64,000 nucleotides of DNA from Escherichia coli (GTDB lineage: Bacteria > Pseudomonadota > Gammaproteobacteria > Enterobacterales > Enterobacteriaceae), in NCBI RefSeq assembly GCF_003334405.1, contig NZ_QOWM01000004.1. One strand, given 5' to 3'. Made by a program: the position numbers and the translations under genes. Of the stretch, positions 31,396 through 37,269 are shown in pieces (position 1 is the stretch's first letter; the number at the start of each line of letters is the position of its first letter). The notes under the pieces were generated by a model. It saw only the letters and a list, made by a program, of their open reading frames with translations, ran no database searches and was not told the origin of the DNA.

Positions 31396-32127
31396 TTAGG
31401 GGGCATGAAAGATGACTTTATAACCTTGCTCACCCCAGTGTTGTAAAAGTTCGTTTTGCCTTCTCGTTGGTGCCATGCCTGTCCAGACAATCAATGTTTG
31501 CGTCGGGAACAGTTCCGGGCGCGGCGATTCAATGGGATCAGCAAGAACAGAAATGTGCCATCCTGACAATGATAAACGCCATGCTTCCAGCCACAATCGT
31601 GCTCTCTCTTCAACATTCCACGCCATCAGAATGGCTTCTTTACCGGGCTTACGGCGCATTTCGAAAAGCGAGGTTGCTGCGTATTCAATTAATGCGCCGT
31701 CAAACATACTGCTCATAATGCGGGAGGTGTTGTGATCAAGCACGAGACGCTGGCGAACAGGAAGGTAAACATGATTAATCAATTGATCTACTGGGTACTC
31801 TCGACCCAGTGAAATAATTCTCGCGCGTAGTTTGGCAGGATTAGCCATGCGAAGAATTGACATCATCTCTTCTTGCAGGCGGCTCCAGTCATCTTCCGTA
31901 TCCTGGCTGGTGGTTTCCAGTAATGCTTTAACTTTGCCTACAGGGACGCCATTACTTATCCAACGCTTGATCTCTTCGATGCGTTGTATGTCTTCTTCAT
32001 CAAAGAGTCGGTGTCCGCCTTCACTGCGCTGTGGTTTTAACAAACCGTAGCGGCGTTGCCAGGCCCGGAGAGTGACAGGATTAATCCCGCAACGTTCAGC
32101 AACATCACCAATGCTGTAATAAGCCAC
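31396..32127 (-). CDS. bluR: MerR-like transcriptional repressor BluR (YcgE), 243 aa
   Basis: ORF 31396..32127 [42 protein letters not shown] (MerR HTH). Confidence 0.92.
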
Positions 32128-32331
32128 AATTCCTCCTTGCGGTCACAAATCTCCGTCGCCTGTACACGACCCAATAATACTTTGTACAATATACGCTAAA
32201 ATTGTACAAAGTATAAATAAGATTTCAGCTAAATTGGATGAAACATTATTTTTAATGTGGATTAAATTTAAACGTAACGTATTCATTTTTACGATGATTT
32301 ACTGAAATCATGTGAAAGAATGTGCTGAAAA

Positions 32332-33543
32332 TTATTTTTTCTCTGGCCACGCTATGGAAGGGATACCATTCAATTTAGCTTTAGCAAACAGATCTCCCTG
32401 AAACATCTCAATTCCTGCGGATTCAAGCCACATCCACTCTTCTGGTGTTGCCACGCCCATAGCACTGACTTGAATTTCAAGTGATGTACAGCATTTTATG
32501 ATCGCCTGAATAATTGCCTGCCGTGGCCCACTTTTATGAACATTGGTAATCAATTCCTGACTGATTTTAATTCTGTCAGGCTGGAAGCGTGACAGGAGTA
32601 ACAAACCAGCAAAACCTGCGCCAAAATGATCAATTGCTACACTGATACCAGCAGCCTTTAGCGATTTAATCGCTTCGGCAAACTCATCAAACCGAGATAT
32701 GACTTCACTTTCAGTAAATTCAACGATGATTTGTTCAGGCACCAGAGCATTGGCCTTTATTTCATTAAGTAAAAAAGAGACTGCGTCAGGTTCGTTAACC
32801 AGGGTCATAGGTAATAGATTGATTGAAATCATTTTATCACCGAGCTCAAGTGCGTGTGCCATCGTGAATGCAAGCGCCTTACTTTTGAGATCCGCTGTGT
32901 AGATTTCCCCGTCTTTACGCTGCCCAACCGCTATGGCTGATGGGCTATCTTCATTTTTTTGCACAATGGCTTCAAAAGCGATTATCCGCCGCGATAAGGG
33001 ATCGACAATAGGATGAAAGGCAAAGTGGTCGTTTATAGTTGGTGAAAGGGCACAGGAATCAAGTTCTTTATCAGATCCGTCAGCGATAAAAAGCCAGGAG
33101 TCTTCGGCAGGGATCTCGAAATAGGTTGATTGTTCGGTTGCAAGGACAAAAGTACGAAAAAATTGTAGCGCTCTGTCATCATAAGTTAGCTGAAATTTTG
33201 ATGTGCCTTTGTCGAATACGGCCTGTAAAACGTCATCTCGCTCGTGCAGGCGCAAATCAAATAATTCCATTCCCGCTTTGCCAAAACGGCGAGCAGGCGC
33301 GTAATCGCACAGCAGCTCAACAATATTATAGTGCCGTGGATCCTGGCATATAGCCCGATATATCATTTTAACCTGTTCTTCCGGACCTTCCAGAAGCTGG
33401 AAAAAATGAGAACCATTAAACAGTAAGATCCCTGTTACGTCAGACTGCATGTTCCTGCGATTTGCTATCGAAACCATTTCTTCGATTTTTTTGACAGGTT
33501 CGTCGTCACGTATATGGCTACGATAAATAAGGGTGGTAAGCAT
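32332..33543 (-). CDS. bluF: Blue-light sensor BluF (YcgF), BLUF + degenerate EAL domains, 403 aa
   Basis: ORF 32332..33621; start placed at MLTTLIYRSHIRDDEPVKKIEE (BLUF fold); C-terminal EAL-like domain. Confidence 0.92.
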   Translation of the reverse strand: MLTTLIYRSHIRDDEPVKKIEEMVSIANRRNMQSDVTGILLFNGSHFFQLLEGPEEQVKMIYRAICQDPRHYNIVELLCDYAPARRFGKAGMELFDLRLHERDDVLQAVFDKGTSKFQLTYDDRALQFFRTFVLATEQSTYFEIPAEDSWLFIADGSDKELDSCALSPTINDHFAFHPIVDPLSRRIIAFEAIVQKNEDSPSAIAVGQRKDGEIYTADLKSKALAFTMAHALELGDKMISINLLPMTLVNEPDAVSFLLNEIKANALVPEQIIVEFTESEVISRFDEFAEAIKSLKAAGISVAIDHFGAGFAGLLLLSRFQPDRIKISQELITNVHKSGPRQAIIQAIIKCCTSLEIQVSAMGVATPEEWMWLESAGIEMFQGDLFAKAKLNGIPSIAWPEKK

Positions 33544-33772
33544 TAACAATCCAGGGTAATGGGTGAGGCGAGAGTAAGACGGTAACAGACATATCTTCTT
33601 GTGTCTTTCTTTTAATACCAAAACATAACCGTTTCTTTACATTGATAAAAAATGGAAAAAGTTGAACACTAGTTGGCGAAAAATCTTGTATAGATTGTCA
33701 GTTAAATGATGCAATATGTTTTATCATAACACATTGTTTTATATGCATTAGCACTAATTGCAAAAAATTAAT

Positions 33773-33801
33773 TTATCATTCTGTACACATATTTCGTACA
33801 A
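33773..33801 (+). promoter_or_regulatory. Candidate ycgZ-ymgA-ariR-ymgC promoter (-35 TTATCA, 17-bp spacer, -10 TACAAT) with embedded tgtaca repeat as possible BluR operator
   Basis: Hexamers with sigma70-like spacing about 55 bp upstream of the ycgZ ATG; exact position inferred, not known. Confidence 0.35.
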
Positions 33802-33856
33802 TTTTGCTATTGTTACTTCACTTAACATTGATTAACATTTTTAACAGAGGCGTAGC

Positions 33857-35160: not shown

Positions 35161-35210
35161 ATCAGGTGTCAAGAATGGAGAGTTCTCGCTCTCCATTCTT
35201 GACGCCTGAT
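35161..35210. repeat. Near-perfect 50-bp palindrome (22-bp arms, 6-nt loop) downstream of ymgC
   Basis: atcaggtgtcaagaatggagag / ttctcg / ctctccattcttgacgcctgat, one mismatch; no T-run follows. Confidence 0.6.
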
Positions 35211-35395
35211 ATCCCGCCTAACTTATTTTGTACTGCCTACATTATGCTCAATAATTAATGGGTTAGATCAAGATGGAGAAAATTTTATCTTCGGCGTGGA
35301 TATTTCTTATGCTCTCTACCATGCTCTCTGTAGATGCCAGCGCGAGCGAATGAATGGCATTTTCATGTATTAAACCCTTTGGCCGGGACAAGCAA

Positions 35396-36919
35396 ATGCG
35401 CAATACACTCATACCCATCCTCGTTGCGATATGCTTGTTTATTACCGGTGTCGCTATTTTGAACATCCAGCTCTGGTATTCCGCAAAAGCAGAGTACCTG
35501 GCGGGAGCGAGATATGCCGCCAACAATATCAATCATATACTTGAAGAAGCGTCACAAGCGACTCAAACAGCGGTTAACATTGCCGGGAAGGAATGCAACC
35601 TCGAGGAGCAATATCAGCTTGGCACTGAAGCAGCTCTGAAACCTCACCTGCGCACAATCATCATTCTCAAACAGGGAATAGTCTGGTGTACATCCCTGCC
35701 TGGGAATCGGGTCCTGTTGTCTCGTATTCCTGTTTTCCCGGACAGTAATTTACTGTTGGCTCCAGCAATCGACACCGTTAATAGATTACCTATCCTGCTC
35801 TATCAGAACCAATTTGCAGATACGCGCATTTTGGTTACGATAAGCGATCAGCATATTCGTGGGGCACTTAATGTACCCTTGAAAGGGGTAAGGTATGTAT
35901 TACGCGTGGCGGATGACATTATTGGACCAACGGGTGATGTGATGACGCTTAATGGACATTATCCCTATACCGAGAAGGTTCACTCCACAAAATATCATTT
36001 CACTATTATCTTTAACCCGCCGCCACTCTTTAGCTTCTACAGACTTATCGATAAAGGCTTTGGGATTTTAATATTTATTCTGTTAATCGCCTGCGCCGCT
36101 GCCTTCCTGCTTGATAGATATTTCAATAAAAGCGCAACGCCTGAAGAGATCCTGCGACGGGCAATAAATAATGGGGAGATCGTCCCTTTTTACCAACCTG
36201 TGGTAAATGGTCGGGAAGGGACATTGCGGGGAGTTGAGGTGTTAGCCCGCTGGAAACAACCTCACGGTGGATATATATCACCCGCGGCATTTATTCCACT
36301 TGCTGAAAAATCCGGATTAATCGTTCCGCTTACGCAAAGCCTGATGAATCAGGTTGCCAGACAGATGAACGCTATCGCGAGTAAATTGCCGGAAGGTTTT
36401 CATATTGGAATTAATTTTAGCGCTTCGCATATTATTTCGCCGACGTTTGTCGACGAGTGTTTAAATTTCCGTGACAGTTTTACCCGCCGCGATTTAAACC
36501 TTGTTCTGGAAGTCACCGAGCGTGAGCCATTGAATGTTGATGAAAGTCTGGTTCAGCGGTTGAACATACTGCATGAAAATGGTTTTGTCATCGCACTGGA
36601 TGATTTCGGTACTGGCTACTCAGGGCTTTCTTATCTTCATGACCTGCATATTGATTATATCAAAATTGATCACAGTTTCGTTGGCCGCGTAAACGCAGAC
36701 CCAGAATCAACCCGAATTCTGGATTGTGTATTGGATCTGGCGCGTAAACTTTCGATCAGTATCGTCGCTGAAGGTGTCGAAACGAAAGAACAACTTGACT
36801 ATCTGAACCAAAATAATATCACATTTCAGCAGGGTTATTATTTCTATAAACCTGTTACATACATCGACCTGGTCAAAATTATCCTTTCTAAACCGAAGGT
36901 GAAGGTTGTGGTTGAGTGA
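35396..36919 (+). CDS. pdeG: c-di-GMP phosphodiesterase PdeG (YcgG), CSS-motif sensor + EAL domain, 507 aa
   Basis: ORF 35354..36919; start placed at MRNTLIPILVAICLFITGV; EAL signature EVLARW present. Confidence 0.9.
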   Translation: MRNTLIPILVAICLFITGVAILNIQLWYSAKAEYLAGARYAANNINHILEEASQATQTAVNIAGKECNLEEQYQLGTEAALKPHLRTIIILKQGIVWCTSLPGNRVLLSRIPVFPDSNLLLAPAIDTVNRLPILLYQNQFADTRILVTISDQHIRGALNVPLKGVRYVLRVADDIIGPTGDVMTLNGHYPYTEKVHSTKYHFTIIFNPPPLFSFYRLIDKGFGILIFILLIACAAAFLLDRYFNKSATPEEILRRAINNGEIVPFYQPVVNGREGTLRGVEVLARWKQPHGGYISPAAFIPLAEKSGLIVPLTQSLMNQVARQMNAIASKLPEGFHIGINFSASHIISPTFVDECLNFRDSFTRRDLNLVLEVTEREPLNVDESLVQRLNILHENGFVIALDDFGTGYSGLSYLHDLHIDYIKIDHSFVGRVNADPESTRILDCVLDLARKLSISIVAEGVETKEQLDYLNQNNITFQQGYYFYKPVTYIDLVKIILSKPKVKVVVE

Positions 36920-37050
36920 AAATTGATCAGTAAGGCCATAGTGCGGTGTAATTATAGACAGCTAATTAGCTCGTTGCCTCTTGTTACTATTGTTCATTAT
37001 TTTGTTTGCTATAATTGTTTGAAAGTTTTGACAGGATTGCCATTAGTAGC

Positions 37051-37269
37051 ATGAACAATAGTAATAATCTGGATTATTTCACTCTCTATATCATATTTTC
37101 CATTGCATTTATGCTGATCACCCTCCTGGTCATCCTTATTGCAAAACCCAGTACCGGGCTGGGAGAAGTGCTTGTGACGATAAATTTGCTTAATGCCCTT
37201 GTTTGGCTGGCGATCAATCTGGTTAATCGATTAAGAGAAAGACTCGTCAACCACAGGGATCAGCAATAA
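37051..37269 (+). CDS. ymgF: Small inner-membrane protein YmgF (72 aa)
   Basis: ORF 37015..37269; start placed at MNNSNNLDYFTLYIIFSIAFMLITLLVILIAKP. Confidence 0.8.
   Translation: MNNSNNLDYFTLYIIFSIAFMLITLLVILIAKPSTGLGEVLVTINLLNALVWLAINLVNRLRERLVNHRDQQ

Follow-up and report, generated by a model that had tools for sequence, protein, structure and literature searches.

The region considered here, positions 31396-37269 of a stretch of Escherichia coli DNA of 64,000 nucleotides (the window), carries the genes of a blue-light and low-temperature switch: the repressor gene bluR, the anti-repressor gene bluF, and the divergent ycgZ-ymgA-ariR-ymgC operon that BluR controls. In addition to the published BluR operator in front of ycgZ, the region contains a second pair of TGTACA hexamers, which lies over the promoter of bluR itself and recurs next to bluR in other genera. 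It is tentatively proposed below that BluR may use this second element to repress its own gene.

There is very little doubt that the locus represents the BluF/BluR/Ymg module of the E. coli chromosome, and no observation made here speaks against the known circuit. In a megablast search with positions 31300-37400, several RefSeq chromosomes of E. coli were identical to the query at 100%; a match was present in 5099 of 5426 complete E. coli genomes, and at least 80% of the query was covered in 4873. The gene coordinates used here are those of the RefSeq annotation of one identical record, transferred to the window, and they agree with the list of open reading frames (ORFs). An earlier note on this DNA had put bluR, bluF, ycgZ-ymgA-ariR-ymgC, pdeG and ymgF at the same places and had described an operon of proteins of 78-90 amino acids divergent from bluF; the annotation and the ORFs, of 78, 90, 88 and 82 amino acids, bear this out. 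The note also regarded the locus as not novel, and rightly so. It is the well-known E. coli blue-light and cold switch, the circuit and the ycgZ operator are already known, and the region is a well-characterised locus of biofilm regulation. The features of the switch are as follows (TSS, transcription start site).

31396-32127, minus strand: bluR (ycgE), a MerR-family repressor and MlrA paralogue of 243 amino acids with a GTG start (RefSeq, Pfam, NCBIfam)
32177-32214, minus strand: candidate second operator, a perfect inverted repeat ATACTTTGTACAAT-N10-ATTGTACAAAGTAT (TGTACA-N14-TGTACA), found by repeat search
32188-32217, minus strand: bluR promoter of sigma70 type, with -35 TTTATA at 32212-32217, an 18-nt spacer and -10 TATATT at 32188-32193
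32332-33543, minus strand: bluF (ycgF), BLUF plus degenerate EAL domain, 403 amino acids, BluR anti-repressor (RefSeq, Pfam)
33751-33765, plus strand: MarA marbox GCACTAATTGCAAAA, about 62-63 bp upstream of the ycgZ TSS
33782-33800, plus strand: BluR operator TGTACACATATTTCGTACA of the ycgZ promoter (PycgZ), overlapping the -35 TACACA (33784-33789) and the spacer
33805-33821, plus strand: extended -10 and TSS of PycgZ (sigmaS/sigma70), with TG at 33805-33806, then c, TATTGT at 33808-33813 and the TSS at about 33821
33857-35064, plus strand: ycgZ-ymgA-ariR(ymgB)-ymgC operon, four small proteins connecting to the Rcs phosphorelay
33857-34093, plus strand: ycgZ, 78 amino acids (RefSeq, ORF list)
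34136-34408, plus strand: ymgA, 90 amino acids (RefSeq, ORF list)
34437-34703, plus strand: ariR (ymgB), 88 amino acids (RefSeq, ORF list)
34816-35064, plus strand: ymgC, 82 amino acids (RefSeq, ORF list)

The BluR operator at ycgZ was established by DNase I footprinting of tag-free BluR on the ycgZ promoter, together with electrophoretic mobility shift assays (EMSA) and point mutants of a ycgZ::lacZ fusion (PMC3509220). It consists of overlapping GTACA...GTACA and TGTAC...GTACA motifs over the -35 hexamer and spacer of PycgZ, and point mutations in it lead to loss of binding and full derepression of ycgZ (PMC3509220). Repression of ycgZ by BluR is about 100-fold at 37 C (PMC5491885). The mapped 5' ends lie 54 nt upstream of the start codon for bluR, 30 nt for bluF and 36 nt for ycgZ, and ycgZ-ymgA-ariR-ymgC is transcribed as a single polycistronic mRNA (PMC3509220). 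The spacer of PycgZ is 18 bp long (PMC3509220), and its extended -10 has also been described (PMC6900184).

Within the window, TGTACACATATTTCGTACA is the sole exact match to the operator pattern, and its position fits the published TSS. The earlier note had placed a BluR operator, marked by a tgtaca repeat, within 33740-33860, and had called that position only an inference. The repeat is real, TGTACANNNNNNNNGTACA having one exact match in the 64 kb, at 33782-33800. The position also stands, as the published footprint falls on 33782-33800; the reservation does not, the operator having been mapped in 2012 (PMC3509220). The footprinting, EMSA and promoter-lacZ mutants that the note went on to propose have likewise been published, with the BluR site inside the predicted interval (PMC3509220).

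Related loci were collected with a BluF-alignment scan of one genome per species, which gave 52 Enterobacterales loci (469 kb in all, numbered with the prefix L where single ones are named) from Citrobacter, Pectobacterium, Enterobacter, Atlantibacter, Erwinia, Pantoea, Phytobacter, Kosakonia, Rahnella and other genera. A search for homologous proteins with BluF had been tried for breadth of taxa and was set aside, its top 120 matches being almost only from Citrobacter. The arrangement in which ycgZ(-ymgA)-ariR diverges from bluF, with bluR downstream of bluF, is found in 24 of the 52 loci. In the bluR-linked loci the ycgZ operator takes the form TGTACA-N7-TGTACA, or N8 in some, and 13 of 23 such loci have an exact pair at one of these two spacings; the second half is GTACA in E. 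coli and Citrobacter. The distance between the operator and the ycgZ start is constant, and after the operator comes a conserved block resembling TTGTATAAC. At the level of sequence, phylogenetic footprinting across about 16 genus-level lineages independently confirms the published ycgZ operator.

The second element was reached through the same operator pattern, a one-mismatch match to which lies upstream of bluR. It proved to be an inverted repeat with arms of 14 nt that are 100% complementary and that contain the two hexamers. The generic promoter and terminator scan returned 17 promoter-like sites against 17.7 expected in shuffled sequence and is uninformative alone; from it, only the match agreeing with the published bluR TSS was used. 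This promoter fits the published 5' end, 54 nt before the GTG (TSS at about 32181). The repeat straddles its -10 TATATT, just upstream of the TSS, with the hexamers at -27 to -22 and at -7 to -2. In all, TGTACA occurs three times in a 48-bp stretch of the bluF-bluR spacer (at 32161, 32183 and 32203). The 64 kb of the window contain 11 such hexamers, about the number expected, and three within 50 bp were found in none of 200 Markov simulations. The third hexamer (32161-32166) was considered as part of the conserved element and rejected: a divergent E. coli strain has TGTAGA at this place, and other genera lack the hexamer.

The pair at the bluR promoter is kept across genera, at about -83 and -64 from the bluR start. 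The gap between the hexamers is 13 nt in 11 cases, 12 nt in three and 14 nt in two, and the sequence between and around them is unconserved. An unbiased screen of 6-mers in the 150 nt upstream of bluR ranked TGTACA and GTACAA first; both were present in all 16 genus-level representatives, and they occurred twice or more in 13-15 of the 16. Exact TGTACA pairs no more than 30 nt apart number 42 in the 469 kb of loci, and every one belongs to a promoter of bluR or ycgZ type. Of these pairs, 39 lie in the two spacers (2.7% of the sequence); the others are one in the bluR spacer of a truncated locus and two in front of ycgZ copies of Siccibacter.

A reading to which we give somewhat less than an even chance is that BluR represses its own promoter through TGTACA-N12-14-TGTACA. 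Under blue light or in the cold, BluF would then relieve bluR and ycgZ of repression together, and the negative feedback would cap the amount of BluR. The proposal is made because the element covers the -10 and the TSS, co-occurs with bluR, and shares the half-site of the proven operator. It is known that BluR binds the MlrA box of csgD in vitro, more weakly, and that this box has a similar spacing, TGTACA-N12-TGCACA (PMC3509220). Overexpression of BluR is toxic. Autorepression gains plausibility from both points, since BluR binds a similarly spaced site and elevated BluR is harmful.

Several considerations weigh against this proposal. The N12-14 spacing at bluR is unlike that of the proven ycgZ operator (N7-8) and resembles that of the MlrA box (N12), so that MlrA could be the protein that binds there. 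The hexamers may also owe part of their conservation to a -35-like role of TGTACA, and ycgZ of Rahnella keeps one hexamer without an adjacent bluR. A search of the literature on BluR autoregulation, SELEX (systematic evolution of ligands by exponential enrichment) and ChIP-exo (chromatin immunoprecipitation with exonuclease) found nothing relevant, and none of the papers that could be read mentions the element; an earlier description may exist. Tschowri 2009 reportedly used ycgE::lacZ fusions, and that work may already address autoregulation. In PPTP-seq the guide against bluR was lost, and the value for PbluR under bluR knockdown is given as N/A (PMC10505187). Reads were strongly reduced for only seven guides, of which this CRISPR interference (CRISPRi) guide was one; the rest are directed at essential genes or have polar effects on them (PMC10505187). 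Since bluR is non-essential, the loss of its guide may reflect the cost of ycgZ-ymgABC derepression.

If MlrA rather than BluR were to occupy the bluR promoter, the pair would couple bluR expression to the pathway of curli and cyclic di-GMP (c-di-GMP). The N12-14 spacing agrees with the MlrA box AAAATTGTACA(12N)TGTACAATTTT, and the helix-turn-helix (HTH) motifs of BluR and MlrA are nearly identical (PMC3509220). However, in all sampled genera the pair occurs together with a neighbouring bluR, and it is missing downstream of bluF homologues without one. Its A/T flanks also differ from those of the MlrA box, with AAT/ATT inside the hexamers rather than outside, and an element over the -10 and TSS is in the position of a repressor, whereas at csgD MlrA activates from upstream. 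An MlrA site is considered unlikely. It is more doubtful still that the hexamers belong to the core promoter, or are AT-rich palindromes that arose by chance, and that no regulator binds them. TGTACA does agree with TTGACA at four of six positions, the lone hexamer of Rahnella ycgZ stands upstream of a TATAAC box with no bluR nearby, and the generic scan found promoter-like sites in the region no more often than in shuffles. Yet the E. coli TSS puts the two hexamers at neither -35 nor -10, the surrounding and intervening sequence varies but the pair and its spacing do not, the hexamers extend into arms that form a perfect inverted repeat, and the clustering of three hexamers was never reproduced by simulation.

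If BluR does repress its own promoter, then either one MerR-type protein uses two binding geometries, N7-8 at ycgZ and N12-14 at bluR, or MlrA and BluR share the second site. As a site for BluR or for MlrA, the element would add a feedback loop to the circuit and would provide a natural pair of operators, with the same half-site and different spacing, for the question of how MlrA-type MerR proteins read DNA. It is a modest, specialist-level addition to the known circuit.

The earlier note had called BluR MerR-like, and residues 4-71 indeed match the Pfam MerR HTH models (MerR_1, 2.4e-18; MerR, 1.7e-12), followed by MlrA_helical (6e-29) and MlrA_C (3e-32). Against the NCBIfam equivalog model for MlrA (NF011617), BluR scores 268.3 bits where the cutoff is 417; because the score is below that cutoff, BluR is taken to be an MlrA paralogue and not MlrA itself, which fits its RefSeq name. 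The closest solved HTH is that of CarH (E about 6e-14). The recognition stretch of BluR, 21 residues, is invariant across orthologues of other genera.

BluF was described in the note as BLUF plus a degenerate EAL domain, and both parts of the description hold. The Pfam BLUF domain covers residues 2-92 over the full length of the model (4.5e-24), and the EAL domain covers residues 173-388. The start of bluF was settled in favour of the 403-amino-acid ATG at 33543 rather than a TTG-extended ORF of 429 amino acids (to 33621, minus strand), because transcription, by the published TSS (about 33573), begins only after that TTG; orthologues all begin with MLTT. The active site was compared in an alignment of BluF, 50 homologues and the EAL domain of PdeG. 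Position 247 (T247N in a published mutant) was left out, since it is S or T even in canonical domains and the alignment column is unreliable. In E. coli BluF, seven positions are replaced: H177, I193, Q195, H306, S328, M362 and A365 stand where Q, L, R, D, D, E and E are canonical. In terms of motifs, BluF has EAIxQ, D-H306, K-x-S328 and M362/A365 instead of EALxR, DD, K-x-D and EGVE. BluF keeps the EAL fold but not the active site.

These replacements bear on the possibility that BluF works like BlrP1, as an active phosphodiesterase for c-di-GMP under the control of blue light, in which case the locus would be an enzymatic c-di-GMP node rather than an anti-repressor switch. A Pfam EAL domain is present, and the closest solved structure is that of Klebsiella pneumoniae BlrP1 (PDB 3gfx), to which BluF is similar over its full length (E=4e-97). 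The seven altered positions are catalytic, metal-binding or c-di-GMP-binding residues, however, and they are kept in PdeG and in the homologues without bluR. BluF was also found neither to bind nor to hydrolyse c-di-GMP, even with the residues restored (PMC3509220), and an enzymatic role is accordingly very hard to credit.

Across the 52 loci, D328 and E362 are lost in every BluF encoded next to bluR. D306 is lost as well, except in two Enterobacter sp. loci (L044 and L048), and the full EAL active site is kept by many BluF homologues without bluR. The 2012 rule that a degenerate EAL domain goes with an adjacent bluR (PMC3509220) is thus mostly reproduced, with exceptions. BluF homologues of Rahnella spp. 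(L032-L039 and L045, 4001-6750) show a different EAL degeneracy, with E275A, K326M and E362T; they adjoin ariR- and ycgZ-like genes and have no bluR within 4 kb. Rahnella is an exception to the rule because its degenerate BluF has no bluR nearby. The promoter of its ycgZ-like gene keeps only one TGTACA, plus TTGTATAAC. In Siccibacter turicensis (L028), two ycgZ-ariR copies flank bluF and no bluR lies within the locus; each ycgZ copy is preceded by TGTACA-N13-TGTACA (2422-2441 and 5985-6004), which is the bluR-type spacing. In Citrobacter amalonaticus AUH_CA_2023_1 (L050, 4001-5210), bluF is interrupted by a stop after 199 amino acids and appears as two tblastn segments, and the locus retains bluR and both TGTACA elements.

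According to the literature, the switch works as follows. BluR, bound to TGTACA-type half-sites over the -35 and spacer of PycgZ, represses ycgZ-ymgA-ariR-ymgC. At low temperature and in blue light, BluF binds BluR and removes it from the DNA, its EAL domain having lost the catalytic residues and playing no further part in handling c-di-GMP. The Ymg proteins then act on the Rcs phosphorelay, with colanic acid going up and curli going down, and YcgZ is described as also lowering ompF; MarA and RcdA are further binders of the bluF-ycgZ spacer. To this scheme the present comparison would add binding of BluR to the conserved TGTACA-N12-14-TGTACA on its own promoter, giving negative autoregulation that BluF might relieve alongside ycgZ.

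Several related systems provide points of comparison. BluR has the same MerR HTH, MlrA_helical and MlrA_C domains as MlrA and the same GTACA core in its sites. The N12 of the csgD box and the N14 of the E. coli bluR-promoter element are similar spacings, while the proven ycgZ operator is much shorter (N7-8). Unlike MlrA, which is activated via DgcM and PdeR, BluR only represses and is antagonised by BluF. BlrP1 of K. pneumoniae has the same two-domain BLUF-EAL architecture over its full length, but in homologues of the BlrP1 type the catalytic residues of the EAL domain are retained and no bluR lies next to the gene, whereas E. coli BluF has lost these residues and works by protein-protein interaction. 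The CarH/LitR and CarA-CarS systems resemble BluR/BluF in that light controls when a MerR-type repressor is released; CarS, an acidic anti-repressor, competes with DNA (discussed in PMC3509220). CarH senses light itself via B12, whereas BluR needs the separate photoreceptor BluF, and the C-terminal domains are unrelated.

The spacer between bluF and ycgZ contains further sites. The marbox GCACTAATTGCAAAA has one mismatch to GCAHWWWWTGYYAAA, and its position agrees with that given by Kettles et al. 2019 (PMC6900184). A marbox-like tAGCAc...TTG..AAAAA also occurs upstream of the ycgZ operator in L002, L008, L009, L016, L018 and L050, which suggests that MarA-type control of ycgZ could be conserved in other genera as well. 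Sequences protected by RcdA have been reported within the same spacer (PMC3535384). A lone TGTACA lies 171-199 nt upstream of the ycgZ start in 11 of the 16 representatives, or in 13 of the 16 when the range is extended to -210 (loci L002-L050). It is placed about 90-115 bp upstream of the ycgZ operator, at a distance that is steadier from ycgZ than from bluF, and it may be an auxiliary site. Its E. coli counterpart is TGTATA at 33687-33692, which overlaps the RcdA-box-like TTGTATAGA (reported in PMC3535384).

Among the small proteins of the operon, YcgZ matches the NCBIfam YcgZ_fam model (122 bits, cutoff 80), and AriR is weakly related to YcgZ. The Pfam YmgB family is matched by two of the four. 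No NCBIfam model was matched by YmgA or YmgC, whose names come from the RefSeq annotation only. The remaining genes of interest in the window are the following.

35396-36919, plus strand: pdeG (ycgG), a membrane protein with a CSS-motif domain and an EAL domain whose catalytic residues are canonical (EVL variant)
37051-37269, plus strand: ymgF, a 72-amino-acid inner-membrane protein associated with cell division (RefSeq, NCBIfam)
61862-62593, minus strand: ycgR, 244 amino acids, 100% identical to the RefSeq 'flagellar brake protein YcgR'

The gene pdeG, which the note had listed as encoding an EAL protein, specifies a CSS-motif domain (residues 31-217, 3.6e-31) and an EAL domain (residues 251-486, 3.2e-66), both by Pfam. 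Of the 15 EAL positions tabulated (EAL, here EVL, in EALxR; ExxE, DD, KxD, EGVE and Q), PdeG has the canonical residue at 14, the fifteenth, position 247, being uninformative; its catalytic site is predicted to be intact. YmgF scores 136.6 bits against the NCBIfam YmgF equivalog model (cutoff 100). Both genes are neighbours of the circuit rather than shown members of it. A ycgR gene had been expected later in the window and is indeed there.

The note had called the region AT-rich. Its GC content is 41.4% against 48.6% for the whole window, and the two regulatory spacers are at about 30%, though the tract is wider than the bluR-ymgF region named: it extends over about 29650-39200 (39.3% GC), from iraM/ymgK/ycgX to ycgH, a frameshifted autotransporter pseudogene. 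An Rfam scan of 28000-40000 (E<=1) gave only two sub-threshold snoRNA matches, attributable to chance, and thus no known RNA element in that interval. Compared with the bluR-bluF/ycgZ-ymgA-ariR-ymgC pathway of E. coli K-12, the window has identical genes, gene order, operator sequence and promoter positions. There is no difference from the K-12 blue-light and low-temperature pathway at the locus, and only the e14 prophage differs nearby: it is absent between icd and iraM in the strain of the window, and K-12 MG1655 carries it there. Other E. coli strains show changes in the neighbouring DNA. In strain E19 (L055, 4563-5456) a deletion of about 665 bp takes the N-terminal (CSS) part of pdeG and leaves a pseudogene, and insertions of the IS3 family are found in the same region of further E. 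coli strains, among the deletion and insertion variants of hits H10 and H12-H14.

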